Below are positions 3,212-54,044 of a stretch of 64,000 nt of DNA, piece by piece. The stretch lies in contig CAWDPO010000030.1 in NCBI GenBank assembly GCA_963804165.1, forward strand, positions 32,001-96,000, written 5' to 3'. Both the position numbers and the translations under genes were made by a program. Below the pieces are notes generated by a model. That model saw only the letters and a program-made list of their open reading frames with translations. It ran no database searches and had not been told where the DNA came from. Positions within the stretch are counted from its first letter, which is position 1; each line of letters begins with the position of its first letter. This DNA comes from an uncultured delta proteobacterium. Lineage in GTDB: Bacteria > Desulfobacterota > Binatia > UBA9968.

Positions 3212-5537
3212 TCACGATTTAATGTTCTCCAACCCAAGATAAATCTTTTCGGCTTTGATCGGCAAGTCTCTGATGCGCACACCGACGGCATCGTAAATAG
3301 CGTTGGCGATCGCCGGCGCTACGGGAATGAGCGCGCTTTCGCCGATGCCCTTGGCGCCGAAGGGACCATTGCGATCCGGTACTTCGACGCAGATCGGATC
3401 GATCACTGAAGGCATGTCACCAAGCGACGGCAAAACATAATCGACTAGATTGGGATTAATCAGTTGGCCGTTGTCATAAGCGATCTCTTCAAACATCGCC
3501 TGGCCGATCCCGGTGATCGCCGCGCCGGCAAGCTGCTGGCGGCAACCCAGCGGGTTGAGCGCTTTGCCGACGTCGACGGCGGTGGCGTACTTGATAAGTT
3601 TGAACTTTCCCGTGTCGATATCGACTTCCACTTCCGCGGCGCCGGCGGCGAGAAACCAAAACGCCGACGTACTCTTTTCGCCGAACTCGTCTTTGGTTGA
3701 CGTCTTAACTTGCCCATCACCGACAAGAGTGCCGCCTTGCATGCCGAAACGCTTGAACATGACCTCGGCGTAGTCGAGCGCGGTCTCCGGCAAACGAACT
3801 TTACCGTCCGCGAAACTAATTTTGTCTTCGGGGACGCCGTATTCTTTAGCGACAATCTGTTTAAGCTGGCGCTGGATATCCTGCGCCGCTAACTGCACCG
3901 CTTTGCCCATGTGAAAGGTCGAGCGGCTCGACGACGTGGTCAAATCATAAGGCACGACGTCGGTGTCGACGCCAAGCACCTGGATTTTTTTTATCGCAAT
4001 GCCCAGCTCGGCGCCGGCGATCTGCGCCATCACGGTATCGGAGCCCTGTCCCATTTCCACCGTGCCAATATAAATCGACAGGCTCGCATCTTCGTTGAGC
4101 TTCACCACGGCGCAAGAGATCGATGGCGTGATCGTCGCCTTGATCATGCACGCAAGCCCCTTACCGCGCCTTAGACTTCCGTCATTGAACTTTTGAACGT
4201 TTGAACCTTTGAACGCTTTATCTTCCCAGCCAATCGACTTGGCGACTTCGTCTAAGCATTCTTTAAGTCCCACCGCGCGCAGAGTTTCGTCAGTAACGAA
4301 TTTATCACCCTCGTTGTAGCCGTTCTGCTTGCGCAGCTCGAGGGGATCGATCTTGAGCGCTGCGGCGATAATATCCATCTGCGACTCAACAGCCCAGGCG
4401 GACTGCGATACCCCGAAACCGCGGAACGCGCCCGCCGGCGGTTTGTTGGTGTAGACGGAATACGAATCGATTTTTAGATTGGGAATTCGATACGGCCCGG
4501 CTGCCGTGTAACCGGATTTTTTTGCGACGCGCGGGCCGATCTCGGCATAGGCGCCGGTGTCGAGATGAATCTCGCACTCGCGCGCTACCAACGTGCCGTC
4601 GTTTTTGACGCCGGTCTTCATGCGAATCACCGCGGCGTGTTTGGTGATCGTGTAAAAGACTTCTTCGCGCGACAGAACCACGCGCACCGGTCGTCCGGCT
4701 TTTTGTGCCAAGGCCACCGTGATCGGTTCGACTTTCGGATAAACCTTGCCGCCATATCCGCCGCCGAGATAGGGCACGATGACGCGGACTTTCGCAACCG
4801 GCACTTTGAAAATATTGGCGAGCTGCGTGCGTACGACGAAGGGATTCTGCGTCGTCGCCCACACGGTGATCCGTCCGCCCGGCTCGACCGATGCGATGCA
4901 TGCATGGGTTTCTAAGAAGCAATGTTGGGTTGCCGGCAACGTAAAGGTGTCCTCGAAGATCTGCTCCGCCTCGGCAAAACCTTTGTCGATGTCGCCGCGG
5001 TTCAGTCGAAAGTGCGTGCAGATGTTGGTGCCGTCGATCGGTTTGAGCTCGGCGAGATCGGCAAAGCCTGATCGCCGGTATTCGCACCTTCTCATGCACC
5101 AGAGTGGGGTTCTGCTTGATCGCGTCCTGAACGTTGAACACCGCAGGCAGCTCCTCGTAGTCGACTTCAATCAGACTCCAGCGCTTCTTCCGCCGCGTCG
5201 ACGGTCAAAGCCGCAACCGCCGCCACCGGATCGCCGACGTGGCGCACCTTTTCCACCGCGACGATCGTCTGATCTTTGAACACCGGGCCGTAGTAGGGCT
5301 CGATGCCCTCATCATGAAGAATATCGTCGCGCGTCAGCACCGCCATGACACCGGCAACTTTCTGCGCTTTCGAAGTATCGATGCGCTTGATCCGCGCATG
5401 CGGGTAAGGACTACGCAGAATCTTGCCGTGGCACATGCCCGGGACACTCATGTCCGCCAAGATAGTGCGCCCTGCCCGGTGACTTTCGTTTCGTAATCTA
5501 AACGCCGCACCGATTTGCCGATTTGGGTTGTGTCCAT
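3212..5537 (-). CDS. Xanthine dehydrogenase-family molybdopterin-binding large subunit (CoxL-like), frameshifted near 5090, 5170 and 5465
   Basis: IGKSVRRLD start, LRSPYPHARI, GGGYGGK, AFRGFG, EMGQG, GAKGIGE. Confidence 0.9.
4185..4214. repeat. Four TTGAAC units at 8-nt period inside the CoxL-like CDS
   Basis: TTGAAC at 4185, 4193, 4201, 4209. Confidence 0.85.
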
Positions 5538-22947: not shown

Positions 22948-23790
22948 ATGTCGGATCTCGCACAGGCTCCTTTTGAATCGGCCCGAAGCCAAGCCGATAC
23001 CGTCATCAAAGTTGAAAATGTTTCCAAAGTCTTCCAGACGCCGAGCCAAGAAAATCTCAGCGCGCTCTTGAAACATCGATTTGGAGATCCGCCCCGGCGA
23101 GTTTGTCACCGTCGTCGGACCGAGCGGCTGCGGCAAATCCACGTTGCTCAAGCTGATCGCCGGATTTTCCCCTGTCTCGGCGGGTCGCATCCTTTGTCAG
23201 GGCGATGAAGTGCGCGGGCTCAATACGCGAGTCGGTTATGTGCCGCAAGAGAGCAAACTTTTCCCGTGGCTCACCGTGGAAGAAAACGTCGGCTTCGGCC
23301 TTAATCCGAAGCGCTATTCGCGCACCGACCGCGAGCGACAAGTAAGCTATTTCATCAATCTTGCCGGCCTCTCCGGCTTTGAAAAATATTATCCGGCGCA
23401 GTTGTCCGGCGGCATGGGCAAGCGCGCTTCGATCATCCGCGCGCTCGCCTACGAACCGCCGGTAATCTTGATGGACGAACCGTTCGGTCCGCTCGATGCG
23501 CAAACGCGCATGGTGCTGCAGGATGAGCTGCTCAAAATCTGGGAACAGAAGCGCCAGACCATCTGTTTGTCACCCACGACTTGGTTGAAGCGGTCGCCCT
23601 CGCCGACCGCGTGGTCGTCATGACGCATCGCCCGGGAAAAATCAAAGATGTCATAAGGATCAATATGGCCAGGCCGCGCAATATTTTCGAGATTCACCGC
23701 CAGGAAGGTTTTGACGATGCTTATGGCCGCTTGTGGCAAATCTTTCGCCACGAGCTCAATATCGGGCGCGCCAGCGCGCAGGATTCATGA
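22948..23790 (+). CDS. NitT/TauT ABC ATP-binding protein, frameshifted near 23075 and 23565
   Basis: GPSGCGKST, LSGGM, LMDEPFG across three ORF pieces. Confidence 0.88.
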
Positions 23791-24659: not shown

Positions 24660-25835
24660 ATGGAAAGGCAGATGAAAATCACAGCTCGCAGTGGGCAGGA
24701 ATGCTTCGACAAGCTCAGCATGAACGGATACTTCTCACTGCTTTCACTCCTATCTTCGTTCGTCCTGAGCCTGTCGAAGGATTCCGAGAGAATGTTCCAG
24801 CGGTTTGCCGGGCTCACTGTAGCGACGATCATCGGGTTGGGCCTGAACATCGCCTCGCAGGCGCAAGCCCAACAGAGAGACATGCCCGAAGTCAGTATGT
24901 TGACCGCCGTGCCCAACTTCGCCTTCGCAGCGATCTGGGTTGCCGAGCAGCTCAAATATTTCGAGCAGGAGGGCGTCCGGATAAAAATCACGCCCGCTCC
25001 GAGCGGCTCGGTCTGTTTGAACGCGGTGGTCGGCCGCTCCACCAATTTCTGCGCGTCCACGTCAGAGGGACTCGTCCTGGCGAAAGTCGAGGGCGCGCCG
25101 GCGATTGCGATTCAAGCGCACAATCGCACGATGACGTTGAGCGTCGTGCTGCGAAAAGCGATCGTCGATAAATTCGGTCTCACCCGCGCTAGCCCCATCG
25201 GCGAGCGCCTTAAAGCGCTGACTCAGCTCGGCACCATCGGCGCAACCGGACCGGGGGCGGCCTCTGAACAGATATTTAAATTCCTAGTGAAAAAAGCCGG
25301 CGCAATTGGGACAATAATTAAGTTCGTCTACATCGGAGCGCCCGAACTTCCCGCTTCGCTGATGAACGACGTGATCGACGCCTATGCGCTTTCCCCGCCT
25401 TCGGCCGAAATCACCGAGGCTAGCGGCAAGGGCTACGTTCTGATCCCGCTGGGGAAGGGCGAAATTCCGGAATTGACAGATTACCCTTATGAAGTTCTCA
25501 TGGTCCGCCCGGATTACGTCGAAGCGAACCCGAAGATCGCCATGGCGGTGGCGCGGGCGATATCGCGCGGCGGCGCGCTGTTCCGCAACAAACCGGAGGA
25601 AGCAAAAGCCGCGCTGCGCGCCCACCGGCTCTCGGTCAAACTATCTTCCGAGGTCTTCGAGCTCTCACACAACATGGTCGCCGGCGCCATGCCTCCGTGG
25701 GGAACGATGAGCGCCGCGGGATGGCAAAAGGTCATCAACTTCGCCACCGGCGCCGGCATCGTCAAAGATCTGTCCCAAGCCCCGTCGAATAAAGAGGGCG
25801 TGCTCTGGACGAATAAATACGTCGGCAAGCCGTGA
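24660..25835 (+). CDS. NMT1/TauA-type ABC substrate-binding protein, N-terminus contains a MITE-like repeat
   Basis: AAGGGAGAG RBS; YFEQEGV, WTNKYV. Confidence 0.85.
   Translation: MERQMKITARSGQECFDKLSMNGYFSLLSLLSSFVLSLSKDSERMFQRFAGLTVATIIGLGLNIASQAQAQQRDMPEVSMLTAVPNFAFAAIWVAEQLKYFEQEGVRIKITPAPSGSVCLNAVVGRSTNFCASTSEGLVLAKVEGAPAIAIQAHNRTMTLSVVLRKAIVDKFGLTRASPIGERLKALTQLGTIGATGPGAASEQIFKFLVKKAGAIGTIIKFVYIGAPELPASLMNDVIDAYALSPPSAEITEASGKGYVLIPLGKGEIPELTDYPYEVLMVRPDYVEANPKIAMAVARAISRGGALFRNKPEEAKAALRAHRLSVKLSSEVFELSHNMVAGAMPPWGTMSAAGWQKVINFATGAGIVKDLSQAPSNKEGVLWTNKYVGKP
24693..24808 (+). repeat. MITE/REP element (CTTCGACAAGCTCAGC..GTCCTGAGCCTGTCGAAG), inverted copy of 34403-34538
   Basis: Colinear with the reverse complement of 34403-34538 over ~115 bp. 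Confidence 0.85.
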
Positions 25836-25907
25836 ATTCACTCTGTCGTATCTCGGCGTTTGTCTGGGTAAGAGAAGCCCTCAAGACGTACAGTTGCGGT
25901 GTTCGAC

Positions 25908-26454
25908 ATGCATTTTAATGCGGGAGCAATACTACCTCCACAGGTCACCAAAACGAACAATGCTCGACAAGTCGGACTCGTGCTCGATACGCTGCTTTTT
26001 CGGTTTAGCGACGAATTCGAACTTGATCCTTACATTGAGGTGTGCGATTGCATCGTGGAATCACGGAGCTTTTTTAAAAGAGGAAATAAGCGTTACGGGA
26101 AAACTGATCCGTCATGCGAGACATGCAACGGCACCGGAAAAATGAAGACCACTTACAACACATTCGCTTGCTTTGACTGGTGGGAGATCGGAGGAAACTG
26201 GGACGGCGACTTAGCAGGAATAACGCGAAAATCCAATACACTATGGCGTAATTGTGTCGTGGTGAGGGATCTGCCAAAAAACTACTATTTCTTTGCCTTA
26301 GTCACTCCTAATAAGAAATGGCACGAGCAGTGGCATTTTACAGAAAGGTAAGCGCACTGAAGAAAAGGAAATTGCACTGTGGCATGAGTTTCAAAAGAAG
26401 CTACTAGGAAGACATTCGGCCCGTCTAGTAGTTTTGATCGACTGCCACCGCTAG
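25908..26454 (+). CDS. Phage-type hypothetical protein, one frameshift near 26340
   Basis: MHF..ILP, CETCNGTG, YNTFACFDWWEIGGNW, ALVTP..WHE, ends VLIDCH in another frame. Confidence 0.6.
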
Positions 26455-26491
26455 AGCATCTGAAGCGCGTACCGTATTGGAGGACTGGCCT

Positions 26492-27103
26492 GTGAGTGCT
26501 AAAGAAGCAAGCAAGGAGAGTACCCGCACCACGCGCAAACTGTTTTCTTACGTGGTTGACCATGACGAAGGTCGTGCACCAAATCCATATTTCGGCTTCT
26601 GTACGCTATGCCTTTGTAAGCATCGAAAAACCAAAAAAAACCGCCAAAACGTAGTTGAAAGGGCTAAAGTTGGTGACTGGATCGTCGGAACAGGCGGTGC
26701 AAGCAAAAGGAGCGCAGGTCATGGCAAGATCATATATGCAATGCGGATTGATAGAAAAATTTAGACGGCTCGAATATTACCGAGATCCGACGTTTGCGAA
26801 GAAGAAAAAGGTGATCGCGGCGACAACTTGCGTCCCGAGAATTGCTTCCAAGAGACGCAGCAATTTGTGCTAATATCCTGCCACTATCGGTATTTCGGTA
26901 AAAAAGCGATTCCAATACCCAAAGCCAAATTTCCTGAACTTGAAAAAAGAGGACCGAGCTTTCGTAGCGACTTTCAAGGAGCCGTATATCTCACGCTTCA
27001 CGTCTTGGCTCAAAAAAAACTACAAGAAATGCGGCAAGCGCGGTGAGCCATGTTCGAGACCGAAGCCTCGTCGCACCGGAAACCCTAAAACGATATGCAA
27101 GTA
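26492..27103 (+). CDS. Nucleotide modification-associated domain 2 (Nmad2) protein, frameshifted
   Basis: LFSYVVDHDEGRAPNPYFGFCTLCLCK, VGDWIVGTG, IIYAM, VLIS..YRYFG. Confidence 0.8.
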
Positions 27104-27820
27104 GTGCTGCTGAGAGTTGGTATAGACACCGGCTCCGGAGGAATCCATGGACCGTTGTTCAGGGACGGTTCATTTAAATACGTGCCTATTAGGGACGGTT
27201 TCAACGGGTGCGGAATAAGCGATCAAACCTACGGGAATACGGACGCCATATATGGCAACAGAACTCTAGTTGATTATTTTCCTGAAAGAGTTCGCGAGAG
27301 TCGTCGGAATATACCAATCCATCACGACCCGGAGTTCCAGACATTCACCTATGGTGATCCGACACCGCCCAAACAAGGTCTCAGGAAGCTCCATAACGGG
27401 GATATGTTAGTCTTCTACGCGGGGTTGCACGGGTGGAATTTCGAATGTGCTCCGGCGTTATATATCGTCGGCTTTTTTGAAGTGGAGACAGCAGGGTTAG
27501 CAACGGATTTCAGCCAACGTGATCTTCAGAGGTATTTTGGGCAAAACTTTCATGTTCGGCACCCGTCCGTTTTTCGAAAGCAGAAGGATCGACTCGTTCT
27601 TGTCAAAGGAAATAAACGGAGTCGTCTATTGAAAAAGGCGCGGGTCATTAGCTCGGTTGGCGCCGACGTGAGGGGGAGGCCGCTTCATATTTTGTCTCCT
27701 GACATGCAAAAGATTTTTGGAAACTTCGATGGTCACGTCAGTATTCAGCGCTCGCCTCCCCGGTGGGTGGCCGAAAGATTTGTCGCCAAAGCTTCCGCAT
27801 TTGTTATGTCTTTACGCTAA
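27095..27820 (+). CDS. Nucleotide modification-associated domain 3 (Nmad3) protein
   Basis: LLRVGIDTGSGG..GPLF.DGSF.YVPI, HHDPEF..FTYGD, GDMLVFYAGL. Confidence 0.8.
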   Translation: MQVVLLRVGIDTGSGGIHGPLFRDGSFKYVPIRDGFNGCGISDQTYGNTDAIYGNRTLVDYFPERVRESRRNIPIHHDPEFQTFTYGDPTPPKQGLRKLHNGDMLVFYAGLHGWNFECAPALYIVGFFEVETAGLATDFSQRDLQRYFGQNFHVRHPSVFRKQKDRLVLVKGNKRSRLLKKARVISSVGADVRGRPLHILSPDMQKIFGNFDGHVSIQRSPPRWVAERFVAKASAFVMSLR

Positions 27821-27942
27821 GAACGATTATACGCACAATCACATCGAGGCATTAATTCTCCGCAAATGAATAGGCAACAAGCAATATACTTCCTAGGACT
27901 ACTAAGCTTGTCAAATAACCAAAGCCTGACACGGAGTCTGAG

Positions 27943-28503
27943 GTGAACCTTCCGATTGGTCCTGTGACCCAGTACCACGACAAACCCCTCTCACTGCTTT
28001 CCCTCGTCGGAATGCTCGTGGTTCTCGTTGCGTTAGTCACCATCTTTCTACCTGCGGTACACCGGGTGGGATCATCCCCTTGCAAGGTGTTCGGAGCCTA
28101 CAAGCACAACGTCGCCACGCTCTCGGACTACGTTGAATATAAGCGAGATGCCAATCGGTTCTACGACCAACACGGCGCGGCTATCCTGACCTTCGACTGT
28201 GAGCGAATCAGTGATGACCTCGTGAAGATGACCCATGATCAGATGGTCTCTGCCGAGACCGAGAGTTTCGGTGGTGCGCGGGATGTCATCCAGATGTTTG
28301 TTCGTTACCGCCTTTTGGGCGCCTGGCGTGAAGGAACCGTCCTTCATCTCGCCAATCCCAACGTCGTTGACAGCGGACCCAAAGCGGTCTTTGGAAGGAA
28401 ATTCTCAGCGTGGAAGGACCAGGTAAGGGAACTTGCAACGGTACGAAGATGGGCATTAGGAAAGGGTCACGGAGAAGGGGTCAAGTCCGCTTTTAGCTTT
28501 TAA
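27943..28503 (+). CDS. Hypothetical membrane-anchored protein whose stop lies at the RAYT-element inverted repeat
   Basis: N-terminal TM helix; last residues GVKSAFSF are encoded by the IR. Confidence 0.5.
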   Translation: MNLPIGPVTQYHDKPLSLLSLVGMLVVLVALVTIFLPAVHRVGSSPCKVFGAYKHNVATLSDYVEYKRDANRFYDQHGAAILTFDCERISDDLVKMTHDQMVSAETESFGGARDVIQMFVRYRLLGAWREGTVLHLANPNVVDSGPKAVFGRKFSAWKDQVRELATVRRWALGKGHGEGVKSAFSF

Positions 28504-29512
28504 TGGTGTCGTTTACATCGAATAAAGAAGGGGCATGGCTCGACCGTTACGAATCGAATACCCCGGCGCTTACTACCACGTCATGAACCGCGGCCTGTCG
28601 CACCGGGATATTTTCCTGGAGGACCAGGGGCAGAGAGTTTCTTGGACTTACTCTCCGACATCACACGGCTTTGGAAAGTAGAAATCTACGCCTATTGTTT
28701 GATGAACAACCATTACCATCTTCTGCTGTCGACGCCGGCGGTGGGATTATCGCGAGCGATGCGACATCTGGACGGGATTTACACACAGAAGTTCAATCGC
28801 GTGCATCATCAAGACGGCCCGCTGTTTCGCGGCCGTTACAAAGCCATCCTGATCGATGCCGAAGCGTATTTCCTATCGGTGGTTCGTTACATCCATCATA
28901 ATCCGGTGGGCGGCGGCAGTGTGCGGGATATGGATCATTACCGGTGGAGCAGTCATTGGGGGTATCTGAACAAGAAACAGTGCCCAAAGTGGCTCAATAC
29001 AGAATCGGTCATGTTACGGTTTAGCGGTGTTCAGGAATATCAGAGATATGTGCAGAGCGAGATTGAGGAAAAGATCGACGACTTTTATAAGGGTCGTAAT
29101 CAAATGCCGATTTTGGGCGACAAAGGATTTGTCCAGAGAGTGCGGAAAATGCTTGGCGAGAAGGCCAAAGTGGAAGGCGTCAAGCCCGAGTCCCGGCAGG
29201 TATTTGGACTGCGCATCGAAGAGATCGCGCGGGCCACGGCGCGGGAGTACGGCAAGCGAGTGGAGGATTTGAAGCGGCGTCGCAGGGGAATCGAAAATGA
29301 AGCCCGCACAATGGCGATGTATTTGAGTTGGCAACTGGGCGGGTATCAAGCACAGCGAGATCGGCAAAGCGTTGGGATTAGACAACGAGTCGTCAGTAAG
29401 CTCGGCGTGTCTGCGGATGAAATTACGGGTAGCGCAAGACCGCAAGATCGACCAAAGGGCTCGAAGAATTACTGATGCGCTGACAAAAAGCTAAAAGCGG
29501 ACTTGACCCCTT
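28475..29512. mobile_element. RAYT-carrying element bounded by perfect 27-bp terminal inverted repeats
   Basis: AAGGGGTCAAGTCCGCTTTTAGCTTTT (28475-28501) and its exact reverse complement (29486-29512). Confidence 0.85.
28535..29506 (+). CDS. REP-associated tyrosine (Y1/HUH) transposase with C-terminal DnaA-domain-IV-like HTH, frameshifted
   Basis: MARPLRIEYPGAYYHVMNRG, CLMNNHYHLLL (HUH), GPLFRGRYKA, RYIHHNPV, YRWSS; C-terminal ARTMAMYL. Confidence 0.88.
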
Positions 29513-30106
29513 TTTCGTCTAGTAGTTTTCACGATCATCAACTGCGAGCGTGGCGTCAAATGGTTTTACGTATGCCAAAAGCTGCTGTAGAAAGATACTG
29601 GACGTTGCATGGATTGCTTGTTCGCCGTGCTTGGCTCGCTTCCGACATAAATAGCGGGCACCTCAGTTATTCGATCAACGACAAGTTTCTCAAAACCCTT
29701 AAATGTATTTTGGAGATGGGTTATCAAGTCGCGACCGGAAATGGACGGTGAACCTGTTGGAAGGTACGGCACATACATAACAGGACGGACGTGATAATGA
29801 CGAGATACGACCGATCAATGGAAATTCCGAACTGACCGTACTTCTGGCCATGAAACCCAAGACATTCATATGGAATATCGGCAAAACAGGTGATGGTAGG
29901 AATTAGAAATTCTCCTTTCACCATGTCAGCGTCCCAGTTGATTTCAATGCGGTGCTCGCCCCGTCCTTTGCGTGGGGCCAATAGGATATCCAACCGCCCG
30001 CAAGAATTTCCTTCAGGATTTTATAATTTTCTCGATGTTCGTCGGGGTGTCTGAAACCAACCGAATGGAAAAGCTCGTCAGATACATAATTGGTAACTTC
30101 CGTCAT
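29513..30106 (-). pseudogene. AbiGi-family-like protein, frameshifted and truncated at the RAYT inverted repeat
   Basis: YVSDELFHSVG, CFADIP..LGFH..KYGQFGI, VMYVP, YVKPFD..DDRENY, then the IR. Confidence 0.65.
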
Positions 30107-30296
30107 AAAATTCCCCAAGAAAAAAAGGCGCATGGTTAGCTAGCATTGTTAGTCGGCCGTCTAAACTCTTCCATGGGCATAACACATCTCCGGTTTTGTT
30201 TTTGCGTAAAACTGTCCGCCGGTCACATGAAACATGCAGCGCTCAAATCACGCCGCGACCGAAATTAAAATCTCACAATCGGTTAGTCGGCAGAGA

Positions 30297-30970
30297 TCAG
30301 CGGTAGCCCATCGCCGCTAAGAACTGTTTCAGGGAAGCAAATTTTAGGTAGGGATTGGTCTTTTTCTGTTCGCCGATCGTCGCGTGCTAAGCGGCGCGTA
30401 GTTGTGGCCAGGAAAGAGAATCGTGTCATCCGGCAGCGCCACCAGCTTCTGGGTCAGGCTGTAATACATCTGTTCGGCGTTGCCGCCGGGGAAATCTACT
30501 CGTCCGCAGGCATCGATAAACATCGTGTCGCCCGACACTACCCGCCCGTCGACGAGGAAACATTGCGAGCCCGGCGTGTGGCCGGGCGTGTGCATGAGCT
30601 CGATCTCGATACCGCCGACATCGACTTTGTCGCCGTTGTCGCTTTTGATCATGTCCGATGACGACAGCCCCTTAATGAACTCCGCTTCCGCTTTGTGCAC
30701 GACCACCTTGGCTTTACACTTTTCAAGCAGCTCCGTCACACCGTCGATCTCCATGCCGGAAAATCCGCCACCGACGTGATCGGGATGCGTGTGCGTCACG
30801 AACGCGTGCGTGATTTCCATCTCGTCCTGCTTCGCGATCTTGAGAATCGTATCGATTTCCCACGCGGCATCGACCACCGCAACTTTGCGGGTTTCGGTCG
30901 AACCGATCAGATAGACGTAATTCTGCATCGGCCCGATCTCGATCTGTTTGAAGTAAAGTCGGTTATCCAT
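30297..30970 (-). CDS. Glyoxalase II-like MBL-fold metallo-hydrolase, C-terminal frameshift
   Basis: THTHPDHVGG, HTPGHTPGS, SGDT, FPGHNY. Confidence 0.9.
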
Positions 30971-33774: not shown

Positions 33775-34382
33775 TTAGCTTCTGCCTCGCTTCACTGCGA
33801 GTCCGCGTTGCCAGAGATATTCTTGCTCGCCGGTTTGTTTGGCAATCCAGCGGAGAGAACGAAAAACAGATCGCTCAACCGGTTGACGTATTTGATCAGC
33901 GTCGGATTGACTTCCTCGCGCGCGATAGCCGGAATATTTCCCTCTCCGCGCGCCGGCACACCGTGCGGCACTGGTGCAGATAGGCGCCGATGCGCCCGCC
34001 GCCCGGCAAGATGAAAGACTTAAGCGGTTCGAGATCTTTCTGACACTGGTCGATCAGCTTCTCGAGCCGATTGATCTCATCGTCGCCCACTCGGTACATG
34101 CCCTCTGTGAAAAATTCCGGCGGCGTGGCCAGCTCGCTGCCGAGATCGAATAGCTCGTCTTGAATTTGGCACAGCACTTCGTCCAAAAACTGATGCGCTT
34201 CGCCAGCGTCGAGACTCTCTTCATTGAAGACCCGCGCCAGTCCGACAATGGAGTTTAATTCATCGATCGTCGCCGTAGGCGTCGATTCGCAGCGAATCTT
34301 TGGGCACTCTCTTGCCGCCGACCAGAGCGGTTTCGCCCCTGTCGCCCGTGCGCGTGTAAACTTTGGTGATGCGAACCGCCAT
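33775..34382 (-). CDS. pduO: PduO/YvqK-type ATP:cob(I)alamin adenosyltransferase, frameshifted
   Basis: [42 protein letters not shown]. Confidence 0.9.
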
Positions 34383-41928: not shown

Positions 41929-42863
41929 ATGAAAATCATGGTCGTCGGCGGCAGCGGCTACATTGGCCGCCATGTAGTAAAAAGTTTAGCGGCTCAAGGC
42001 GCAGACGTCGTCGCGTTCGACGTAGCGCCTGCGCCGGCGAATTGGATCCAGCCCCGGTGTGCCATTCATCCAGGGCAACATGGCGAATCTCGAAGAGGTC
42101 ATGGCGGCCGTCGTCGACCACGGCGTCCAGCGGATTGTCGCTCTCGGCTACTTCATGACGCCGCTGCTCGCTCCCGAATGCCGCGATCTTCTCAATGCCG
42201 CGCGCGTGAATATTCATGGGCATCACGAATCTTTTCGAAGCCGCGCGCCTCGCCCATTTGGACCGTGTCGTTTTCGCCAGCACTGTGGGGACGTTTGGCT
42301 ACCAGGATGGTTATGGGTCTGAACCGATCAACGAGAACACTGAAGCGCGCGCCCCAAAGAGCTTGTACGGTCTTATGAAGCTCCTCAACAACGGCTTGGC
42401 CGAACGCTACACGAAAACCTTCGGTATCCAAATCGTCAAGGTTCACTCCACGGCCGTCATCGGCCCGGGCAACACGGCGTTCTCCCGTCAGATGATTCAA
42501 CAGCCCGCACTGGGCAAACCCGGGTATGCTAACTGGCCGTCCGCCGCGCCGCGCAACATCGTCGGTGTCGCCGACATCGCCCAGCTCTACAGCAAGATCG
42601 CGCTCGCCGGTGAAGTAAAGCATGACACTTACATGGGCACCGGCCCCTCGCCCACGGGCCGCGAAATCGCGGACATCGTGATCAAATATTTACCCGACGC
42701 GGAGATTAGCTTCGACGAAAAAGCCCGGGTTCCAGCCTGGAACTTCGACAATTCGCGCGCGGTAAAAGAATTCGACTGGAAAATTCAGCCGGTGGAAGAA
42801 ATGGTTTTGGACGAGATCAATGGAACGAGGCAAGCGGCAGGGCTGCCGTCTGTAAGAATGTAA
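41929..42863 (+). CDS. NAD-dependent epimerase/dehydratase, frameshifted
   Basis: GGSGYIG, FAST, YGLMK (YxxxK). Confidence 0.85.
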
Positions 42864-52851: not shown

Positions 52852-54044
52852 AAAGAACGAGACCGTCGCTGGAGTCTTCTGCGCCAGGCAATGGGCACGG
52901 CCGGTCTCGACGCGCTCATCAGTTTACCCAACGAAGGACACTGGGATCAGTTCGGCGCTGACACGCGCTACATGACCCAGATCGGCGGCACGCAAACCGA
53001 AGTCGGCGCTGTGCTGCCGCGTGAAGGCGATGTTACGGCCGTGGTGCGCGGCGCCAACGAGATCGAATGGTGGGGCTTGGCCCAGGATTGGGTGAAAGAT
53101 ATCCGCCCGTCGCGCCGCTCCTACGGCGAGCCGGTCATCGAGCGCCTCAAGGAAATTCGCGCCGAGCGCGTCGGAGTCATCGGACTCTCCGGTCTGGTGC
53201 GCGCGCCCGAAGGCGTGGTGCCCTGGGGAACTTTTGAAAAGATTCGCCAGGCGTTGCCGAACGTCAAATTCGAAAACGCCACGGATCTCATGCAAGATGT
53301 CCGATCGGTGAAAAGCGCCGAAGAAGTCGTTTTTGTCGAAAAAGCCGCCGACATCATCGGCAAAGCGATCGACGTGCTGATCGCCCACTCGAAAGTCGGC
53401 GTGCGCGAGAACGAACTCATCGCGCGAGATGCTGCGCGAGATCGTCCGCCAAGGCGGCGAACCGATCACCATGATGCTTTTCGGCACCGGCGGGCCGGAG
53501 GTGCCATGGGCGCAGCGCGTGTTCACGACGCGGCAATTGAAACCTGGCGATCTGATCAACACCGAAGTGGAAGGCAAATACGCCGGCTACATCGCCCAGG
53601 CGCTGCAACCCATCTCTCTCGGACCGAAGCCGAAAGACTTGGAGAAAATTTTCGACGCTACGAAAATCATTTTCGAAAAGATGCTCAAGTTTCTAAAGCC
53701 GGGCATCACGTTCGGCGCGGTCGTCAAGTTCTACCAAGATGAAGTGCAAGCAACCGGCTACGAGCCCGACGGCGCGCTCATGCACGGCCGCGGCCTCGGC
53801 GAAGACGCGCCGATGCTCTGGGGTGCGCGTCGCGATTTCCCCGAAAAAGAAGCGAAACTCAAAGAAGGCCATGTGTTCATCTTGAAGCCGGCTTGCAAGC
53901 AAGGCTTCATGCGCGACTCGATCCGCGCCGGCGACACCGTGGCGATCGAAGCCAATGGCGCGAGAAGACTCGGCAAGCGAAATTTGACGTTCGTAGCTGT
54001 TTGAGTCGTCACCGTGCAATCACGTGAACAAACGCTCGGTGTTT

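Follow-up and report, generated by a model that had tools for sequence, protein, structure and literature searches.

A small, AT-richer islet in the genome of an uncultured delta proteobacterium (Desulfobacterota, Binatia; GenBank assembly GCA_963804165.1) carries two overlapping genes, Nmad2 and Nmad3, and we argue here that the two products probably act as a single unit for binding a modified base in nucleic acid. The DNA analyzed is a stretch of 64,000 nucleotides (nt) of contig CAWDPO010000030.1, which we call the window and within which all coordinates below are counted. The wider statement, in which such a two-protein unit also has a host-side defence role, we offer tentatively and with somewhat more doubt than belief. 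Phages hide their DNA from restriction by exotic base modifications, and the known answers of the host consist of a PUA-type reader together with a nuclease. The pair considered here occurs widely in bacteria of soil and sediment (2819 clusters at 90% identity and 740 at 50%), has no assigned function and, from predicted structures, appears to be two reader domains alone; the partner of Nmad3 changes from one lineage to another. What, then, might two readers do by themselves, and is the pair that encodes them intact in this organism?

The Nmad3 gene is intact, and its product matches Pfam PF18754 over profile positions 2-245 of 247 (E 1e-26, 94.6 bits, cut-off 27). A search of the whole genome confirmed this match and found the Nmad2 and Nmad3 families each as a single copy. 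Nmad2 (PF18753) is here not one open frame of ~190-200 residues; in a three-frame translation, it passes through frames 2, 0, 2 and 0 in turn. Its N-terminal third is recognized in the open reading frame (ORF) at 26477-26764 (E 1.4e-18, 67.6 bits, cut-off 26.1, positions 2-66 of 200), and the ORF at 26828-27046 resembles positions 132-170 weakly, under the cut-off (E 0.003, 17.5 bits). The start codon at 26492 is a GTG in the first of these frames, and the stop codon, TAG at 27102-27104, lies within Nmad3, so that the two genes overlap by 10 nt from the Nmad3 ATG at 27095. Intact Nmad2 proteins of Acidobacteriota loci share 58-71% identity with the N-terminal fragment, and the highest value is that of the locus that we call L007. 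An earlier note, made from the letters of the window, had proposed overlapping Nmad2 and Nmad3 genes, and these Pfam matches bear it out, with Nmad2 in a frame that is shifted three times. A scan of 25750-28600 gave no sigma-70-like site (2.4 expected) and six terminator-like sites (3.4 expected).

Do the two proteins belong together? In a collection clustered at 90% identity, Nmad3 has 2819 homologues at E 0.001 or better, the best 120 of which are 60-87% identical to it and nearly all 237-262 residues long; a library clustered at 50% holds 740 representatives, 73 of them at 1e-30 or better. With an alignment as the query (a single protein gave none), we retrieved 80 related genome loci at 53-66% identity, which by their record titles come from Acidobacteriota, Planctomycetota, Chloroflexota, Pseudomonadota, delta-proteobacterial lineages, Paraburkholderia, Chitinophaga, Gemmatimonas, Lentisphaerae and others. 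When five genes on each side were clustered across these loci, the sole conserved neighbour of Nmad3 was the gene that abuts or overlaps its start. A same-strand upstream ORF overlaps that start in 48 of the 80 loci, by 19 nt in 17 of them, by 10 nt in 14 and by 4 nt in 11. Pfam recognizes Nmad2 in 42 of 76 upstream ORFs, and a hidden Markov model (HMM) of our own finds it adjoining Nmad3 in 53 of the 80 loci (46 upstream and 7 downstream); the 40 upstream ORFs from which that model was built belong to the same 80 loci, and the Pfam count is the independent one. Paraburkholderia monticola JC2948 (L066) and Stieleria bergensis (L077) are among the loci whose upstream Nmad2 is free of frameshifts.

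The loci without Nmad2 are instructive as well. In 23 of these 27, the same position is taken by a member of one of three other small families (12, 6 and 5 loci; Table 1), which share the stop/start overlap with Nmad3 and have no match in Pfam or PADLOC. The idea that these are divergent Nmad2 proteins was rejected, with hhalign probabilities of 2.3%, 0.08% and 0.2% and a likeness at the level of motifs, by eye only. Both domains occur within one chain in 8 of the 16 longer homologues scanned, 7 in the order Nmad3-Nmad2 and 1 in the order Nmad2-Nmad3. The coupled translation, the fusions in both orders and the exchange of partners all suggest that the two proteins function as a single unit in which Nmad3 is constant. 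A prediction of the complex from the L007 Nmad3 and Nmad2 with their alignments returned “no answer” (score 0.00), which speaks neither for nor against a physical complex. In three planctomycete loci (L071, L075 and L077), a PRiA4_ORF3-like protein (PF07929) stands directly before a long-form Nmad2 and may be a lineage-specific third component.

The predicted structures suggest what such a unit might bind. An AlphaFold2 model of Nmad3 (alignment of 62 sequences; pLDDT 96.5, pTM 0.93) has as its top Foldseek matches in the PDB the EVE protein THYN1 with 5-methylcytosine DNA (E 4.7e-3) and PH1033 (7.8e-3, probability 0.96), followed by a Thermococcus McrB N-terminal domain, ZmASCH, PSPTO5229 and YTH domains. 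A structure search independent of Foldseek (VIA), run over 48,161 chains, returned 19 with Z of at least 5, and all 19 are EVE, ASCH, YTH, McrB N-terminal, VcaM4I or DrmAB structures. The best are 1wmm (Z 7.8, root-mean-square deviation 4.3, 134 residues aligned), VcaM4I (6yex, 7.4), ZmASCH (5guq, 7.3) and 2ar1 (7.1), ahead of THYN1 (5j3e, 6.9), YTH domains (6.0-6.3), McrB N-terminal domains (5.5-5.8) and DrmAB (5.4). For Nmad2, we modelled the intact L007 homologue (37 sequences; pLDDT 84.8), and here too all 18 chains with Z of at least 5 fall in the same class: YTHDC2 (7.6, with 6k6u the best), Mmi1 (7.1), DrmAB (7s9w, 6.9), VcaM4I (6yex, 6.9), EVE proteins (6.5-6.6), ZmASCH (6.4) and TgMcrB (6.2). 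ZmASCH also leads the Foldseek list for Nmad2 (probability 0.96). The uniform top of both lists, together with near-full coverage of the target domains, leads us to predict that both proteins adopt the PUA-like EVE/ASCH/YTH fold found in the modified-base readers of type IV restriction enzymes.

In this class, a modified base is flipped into a pocket and read, and a few members act on the base. Nmad3 is rich in near-invariant polar residues (R7, D11, Y46, H76, D78, T85, Y86, D88, D103, N151, H153, S176 and R219) and conserved aromatics (F27, Y46, F81, Y86, Y108 and Y123), and the 37-sequence alignment of Nmad2 has a near-invariant T-L-x-x-C-K stretch, W60 and H129. The invariant polar residues raise the possibility that the pair acts on the base as well as reading it. 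About 100 Nmad3 residues lie outside the shared core (~134 of 241 aligned). A sequence kinship between Nmad2 and Nmad3 was considered and rejected (hhalign probability 0.7%), so any relation between them is structural only. No PDB chain matches either profile at E up to 1, and a feature search of the ESM Atlas gave best clusters at 0.86-0.87 that are unnamed and below the level at which that tool offers more than a lead. We did not find a PUA-like fold for Nmad2 or Nmad3 in the literature searched; it may already be recorded in Pfam clan assignments.

If the pair reads modified bases, does it also travel with the enzymes that make them? The earlier note had called the pair stand-alone and its islet free of modifying enzymes, and both statements hold. 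The islet ORFs contain no modifying enzyme by Pfam, NCBIfam or PADLOC. Pfam scans of two ORFs on each side of the pair in the 80 loci (292 of 293 ORFs, with one of 1741 residues left out) gave no match to thymidylate synthase, 5-hydroxymethyldeoxyuridine (5-hmdU) kinase, alpha-glutamyl/putrescinyl-thymine pyrophosphorylase (aGPT-Pplase) or DNA glycosyltransferase; homologous pairs thus occur without a hypermodification enzyme at their side. No nuclease or NTPase domain is fused to the pair or conserved next to it in these loci. In these loci, stand-alone architecture is the rule for the clade of the window Nmad3. Elsewhere in the genome, which is 81% complete, HMUDK_hel, HMUDK_HMUD1, HMUD2 and aGPT-Pplase3 were not found by models that matched none of the control genomes either, and aGPT-Pplase1/2 were not searched. 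Locus L107 of the same phylum (G292:C4, 3256-8254) has a more typical Nmad3 (269 bits) in the row ThyX, DUF309, small ORF, Nmad3, AAA_5 ATPase and VWA_CoxE, a setting unlike that of the window clade; a McrBC-like context was considered for it and rejected, as the last two genes are a MoxR/CoxD-type pair.

Nor does the clade seem to belong to phages. Neither Nmad3 nor an intact Nmad2 has a tblastn match in 50,697 phage records, and IMG/VR holds two weak relatives among 2.9 million contigs. Relatives occur on six plasmids, and of 300 other genomes of the phylum (a draw), nine, in scattered genera, have an Nmad3 of any clade. The distribution suggests a clade that is cellular rather than phage-borne, accessory and horizontally transferred. 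On one of the plasmids, the conjugative megaplasmid pHG1 of Cupriavidus necator (L094, 5962-6654), a 30%-identical Nmad3 homologue with no annotated Nmad2 alongside has a ParDE toxin-antitoxin pair on one side and a restriction endonuclease on the other.

The copy in the window arrived by insertion. Its islet has a GC content of 0.46-0.53 from about 25850 to 30300, and its flanks have 0.55-0.63, much as the earlier note had described. The flanking genes, for an ABC substrate-binding protein and a metallo-β-lactamase (MBL)-fold protein, are only 94-178 bp apart in three genomes of the same genus (G014, G019 and G004), one metagenome contig connects 25831 straight to 30307 and omits 4475 nt, and Nmad3 was not found in 40 relatives (24 genomes of the genus and 16 of the order). 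The islet is an insertion because of these three facts: the flanks adjoin in relatives, a contig skips it and the relatives lack Nmad3.

Whether this copy is alive is a separate question. Compared with two metagenome sequences, Nmad2 has indels at about 26762 (+1), 26804 (-1) and 26975 (+1). In one of these, an 83%-identical relative (L089), the C-terminal 136 residues of Nmad2 are uninterrupted, and the window shifts three times against them. The other, a contig that we call X1 (4352 nt, depth 11, ~92% identical over 26356-27932), differs from the window by indels at 26491, just before the GTG start, and at 26762, 26804 and 26975, which are exactly the shift sites of Nmad2; it comes from a different strain and cannot prove the state of Nmad2 in this organism. 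A short contig (X2) that has 2 mismatches in 154 nt is without the base at 26975, and other contigs have an extra G at 23563 and 30387, which is where the ABC ATPase and MBL genes of the flanks lose their frame. Related short-read contigs thus have the opposite indel at three of three Nmad2 sites and at two sites in flanking genes. A syntenic comparison with 75 kb of G014 shows, moreover, that 6 of 32 conserved window genes change frame, 9 times in the 29.9 kb aligned. Frameshift sites in conserved genes lie near 5073-5176, 23067-23075, 23563-23569, 30350-30386, 34272-34360, 42045, 42213-42241 and 53421-53426.

Because conserved genes are shifted too and related contigs are without exactly these indels, the Nmad2 frameshifts are likely to be errors of assembly, and therefore, the organism probably carries an intact pair; any call of a pseudogene in the window should, by the same comparison, be treated as suspect. 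It is also conceivable, if unlikely, that the islet is old foreign DNA in which Nmad2 is a true pseudogene and the pair sits idle, an explanation that would concern this copy only, whatever intact pairs do in other organisms. Four islet genes (those for the 181-residue protein of Table 1, Nmad2, the RAYT transposase and the AbiGi-like protein) are frameshifted, with only Nmad3 seen whole, and the islet has at least 7 shifts in 4.5 kb, ~5 times the density in conserved window genes (0.3 per kb), and rpoB and secA are unbroken over 7.7 kb. The RAYT and AbiGi-like genes are shifted although they are poor in homopolymers, and some or all of the islet frameshifts could be real decay. Decay of the islet does nothing, however, to account for six conserved chromosomal genes that are also shifted, which is not credible biology, in a genome of 7.5 Mb that is 81% complete by markers in just 46 contigs. 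Nor does the damage look like decay: Nmad2 and the other genes have single-base indels alone, with no nonsense codon in any piece and no deletion seen, and the base missing from X2 is missing from a nearly identical sequence. Two of the three Nmad2 sites are runs of five A residues, and runs of five or more identical bases occur in Nmad2 at 11.4 per kb vs. 3.4-3.9 per kb in the core.

We return to the reading that we prefer, a two-protein unit for modified bases with a role in host-side defence, and to what counts against it. The structural scores are middling (best Z 7.8 and 7.6, where the search tool warns that values under 8 can reflect a common arrangement), no Foldseek E is at or below 0.001 and neither protein has a sequence match to Pfam EVE, ASCH or YTH at E up to 1. 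Pfam finds no nuclease or other effector domain in Nmad2 or Nmad3. PADLOC-DB 2.0 returned 0 families for the window Nmad2 fragments and Nmad3 (E up to 1) and 0 for the intact L007 Nmad2 and Nmad3, the three alternative partners and two fusions (E up to 0.01), and in 10 supplement files of the DefensePredictor study (PMC13092281) the terms “Nmad3” and “PF18754” do not occur. The flanking genes are mostly those of metabolism, transport and regulation (MatE, RecR, YbaB, peptidases, permeases, regulators and metabolic enzymes), two Acidobacteriaceae loci (L004 and L015) share the flanks MatE and RecR in what looks like stable vertical inheritance, and at 54-87% identity between phyla, conservation is higher than is usual for genes of defence. 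A defence role for the pair is something that we propose; no Nmad2-Nmad3 pair has a known defence phenotype. The earlier note had gone further in naming the pair a defence module, and neither the PADLOC models nor the neighbourhoods back that name. Names from mobile elements, toxin-antitoxin systems or defence were met in roughly 28 of the 80 loci, counted by reading and with no baseline (integrase, IS110, IS200, IS21, DUF5615 with DUF433, Gp49, PIN, HEPN with nucleotidyltransferase, KwaB, JetD, OLD-like TOPRIM, GIY-YIG, NOV_C, WYL and PRiA4_ORF3), and GIY-YIG or PD-(D/E)XK-type neighbours were met in just three (L041, L047 and L057).

High conservation and ordinary flanks keep another explanation in play, namely that the pair is a housekeeping or salvage enzyme whose substrates are modified nucleosides, nucleotides or RNA and which has no part in conflict with phages. 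The ASCH protein YqfB reportedly removes the acetyl group of N4-acetylcytidine, and ZmASCH is said to cut RNA. ASCH structures stand at or near the top for both of our models, and so many near-invariant polar residues in Nmad3 suggest catalysis, not binding alone. We nevertheless think a salvage role improbable. A housekeeping gene would sit oddly with so sparse and patchy a distribution (9 of 300 genomes of the phylum and none of the 40 relatives), with an inserted islet shared with mobile and Abi-type genes and with a partner that is swapped among four families; YqfB itself matches at a Z of only 2.7, and Nmad2 is a member of a validated defence system, DS-4, as the parts of PMC13092281 that deal with it report. 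In those parts, the DS-4 Nmad2 stands beside a thymidylate synthase, a kinase and a 5-hmdU-kinase-like protein, and one could take this, with the Nmad3 downstream of ThyX in the same phylum, to mean that our pair is the remnant or accessory of a pathway that makes or maintains a modified base in the cell's own DNA, with its enzymes encoded elsewhere. That explanation strikes us as very unlikely, given that none of the 292 flanking ORFs is such an enzyme, that the four models named above found nothing in the genome (with the limits given there) and that the clade is absent from the phage records. The family names are the other point in its favour, as they stem from an association with predicted base-modification clusters.

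Host-side surveillance by the two-protein unit is our best guess because the clade is cellular, sparse, mobile, without modifying enzymes, modular in its partners and tied through Nmad2 to the validated DS-4. How might it work? The locus would be a horizontally acquired two-gene module that needs no DNA-modifying enzymes of its own and whose products, unrelated in sequence and alike in fold class, would be made by coupled translation and act as one unit, presumably a physical complex. Nmad3 would be constant in it, and the exchangeable partner ahead of it (Nmad2 or one of the three small families) probably sets what is recognized. Its role would be to recognize, and possibly to process enzymatically, the modified nucleic acid of invaders, such as hypermodified phage DNA. 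The earlier note had supposed that the pair recognizes or attacks such DNA: the predicted fold speaks for recognition, and attack finds no counterpart in a nuclease or effector domain of either protein. The invader might be harmed by the pair's own activity, for which Nmad3 offers a conserved His/Asp set, or by a host factor that the pair recruits. In its boldest form, the proposal is of a self-contained, nuclease-free immune module in which a PUA-like heteromer would both flip hypermodified bases and serve as the effector, for example by base excision or side-chain removal through the Nmad3 His/Asp residues, with the partner deciding which modification is hit; we regard this as a long shot.

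Were the pair to act on modified DNA, it would be a new, compact recognition module that could restrict modified phage DNA, a possible tool to detect or process modified bases and the first function for Nmad domains, which would also explain the presence of Nmad2 in DS-4. Restriction of modified phage DNA by nothing but reader domains would itself be new. Even a housekeeping enzyme for modified nucleosides would bring new biochemistry to two uncharacterized families.

The islet holds more than the pair (Table 1). Its first gene, for a protein with two Cys pairs, has 10 homologues, mostly of 181 residues and 63-76% identical, and no Pfam match; it is partly present on the X1 contig that bears the pair, and it has no homologue in the other 90 loci compared, including none in the 80 more distant ones. 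It is, by these comparisons, rare and not a general partner of Nmad2-Nmad3. The doubtful 186-residue ORF has no match in Pfam, PADLOC or NCBIfam and no homologue in the loci compared or elsewhere in the genome.

The earlier note had also named a RAYT element and an AbiGi-like gene in the islet; both are present, and both are frameshifted. The RAYT unit is bounded by 33-nt inverted repeats that are 94% complementary, the left one forming the 3′ end of the 186-residue ORF. Its gene is shifted at least once, near 28630, where the tblastn match goes from frame 2 to frame 1, and the family has ~15 copies in the genome. A fragment of the AbiGi-like gene matches the PADLOC AbiGi model at E 4e-6, and the gene is 84% identical in DNA to an intact one of 256 residues (Pfam AbiGi, 53 bits) in a relative (G015:C5). 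In that relative, an intact RAYT gene again faces the intact AbiGi-like gene convergently, at a different locus, which makes the right half of this islet a separate block. Scans of ORFs in the islet and next to the G015 copy gave no AbiGii partner, so the two-gene AbiG system is not seen in either place.

Two repeats deserve mention. An exact 14-nt direct repeat, CGTCTAGTAGTTTT, occurs at 26422-26435, just upstream of Nmad2, and again at 29516-29529, just beyond the right RAYT repeat. The two copies may flank a mobile unit or have arisen by chance (rough chance odds ~0.04 in 4.7 kb), and the X1 contig does not end there. Beyond the islet, 32629-32950 matches dozens of places in each of five genomes of the same genus at 70-86% identity, often in tandem, and belongs to a large paralogous gene family; the ORF in the window resembles, by eye only, the C-terminal part of an ABC-type substrate-binding protein.

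Table 1. Features of the islet in window coordinates, and the families that replace Nmad2 at other loci
Feature	Position or loci	Strand	Remarks
Inserted islet, 4475 bp, AT-richer	25832..30306		Between ABC substrate-binding gene and MBL-fold gene
Gene for ~181-residue protein with Cys pairs	25908..26455	+	One frameshift near 26340; C-terminus continues in another frame at 26341-26455
Nmad2 gene	26492..27104	+	Three single-base indels; Pfam PF18753 on two fragments
Nmad3 gene	27095..27820	+	Intact, 241 residues; Pfam PF18754
186-residue ORF with N-terminal hydrophobic stretch	27943..28503	+	3′ end inside left RAYT inverted repeat (arm 28469-28501); doubtful gene
RAYT-like tyrosine transposase	28469..29518	+	Y1_Tnp and DnaA_C-like helix-turn-helix (Pfam, NCBIfam); coding sequence about 28535-29475
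AbiGi-like gene	29522..30133	-	Three ORFs in three frames, at least two frameshifts (near 29800 and 29990); convergent with RAYT gene
Partner family of 12	L018, L020, L023, L025, L027, L028, L033, L044, L048, L064, L065, L073		Upstream of Nmad3
Partner family of 6	L009, L012, L045, L046, L060, L062		Upstream of Nmad3
Partner family of 5	L036, L038, L047, L051, L063		Upstream of Nmad3

Full-text searches for “Nmad2” and “Nmad3” returned unrelated uses only, a preprint on Asgard viruses concerns Nmad1 only and “Nmad” is absent from the main texts of a paper on thymidine hypermodification (PMC8989533), a survey of EVE and DCD domains (PMC7641849) and a preprint on the END nuclease (10.1101/2025.03.31.646159). 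This fits the earlier statement that Nmad domains have no demonstrated biochemistry.

How does the pair compare with what is known? Both window proteins lie above the curated cut-offs of their Pfam families, Nmad2 by way of its N-terminal fragment. The window Nmad3 clade is a divergent branch of the Pfam family, scoring 94.6 bits where other members from that phylum score 190-270 bits, and it has no modification genes alongside; the frame of the window Nmad2 is broken in the assembly. The arrangement expected of a thymidine hypermodification cluster, with genes for aGPT-Pplase and 5-hmdU kinase next to the Nmad genes, was not seen in the islet or among the 292 flanking ORFs. Stand-alone ASCH and EVE proteins (the ribonuclease ZmASCH, Escherichia coli YqfB, PH1033 and THYN1) are small, have a single domain and share the predicted fold; they are ~100 residues shorter than Nmad3, which, in contrast, comes in an obligate-looking pair, and YqfB reaches only the low Z given above.

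Closer in kind are the type IV modification-dependent enzymes with a sensor of the PUA superfamily (the EVE-HNH enzyme VcaM4I, McrB N-terminal domains and PD-T4-3), whose sensor fold matches both predicted proteins. Z values for Nmad3 and Nmad2 against sensor chains are 7.4 and 6.9 (6yex), 5.8 and 6.2 (6p0g) and 3.7 and 3.6 (9u75). In the portions of the literature that describe these enzymes, the sensor is joined to a nuclease (PMC7897488; 10.1101/2025.03.31.646159). They thus combine a nuclease with one sensor, whereas the window pair is two different PUA-like proteins with no nuclease or NTPase fused or conserved alongside.

The system with the most direct tie is DS-4 (“NTTI”), validated as a defence system of E. 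coli in the DefensePredictor study and missed by the earlier note. As set out in the sections of that paper on DS-4, it has five genes, for a thymidylate synthase, an adenylate-kinase-like deoxynucleoside monophosphate kinase, a 5-hmdU-kinase-like “DNA base hypermodification protein,” a TIR protein and, last, an Nmad2 (PF18753) that overlaps the TIR gene; the same sections list other E. coli Nmad2 genes among predicted novel defence genes and call the NMAD domain “of unknown function” (PMC13092281). DS-4, so described, has no Nmad3, and its four other components are neither in the islet nor in the flanks of the 80 loci. What it shares with the pair of the window is Nmad2 itself and the overlap of that gene with its neighbour.

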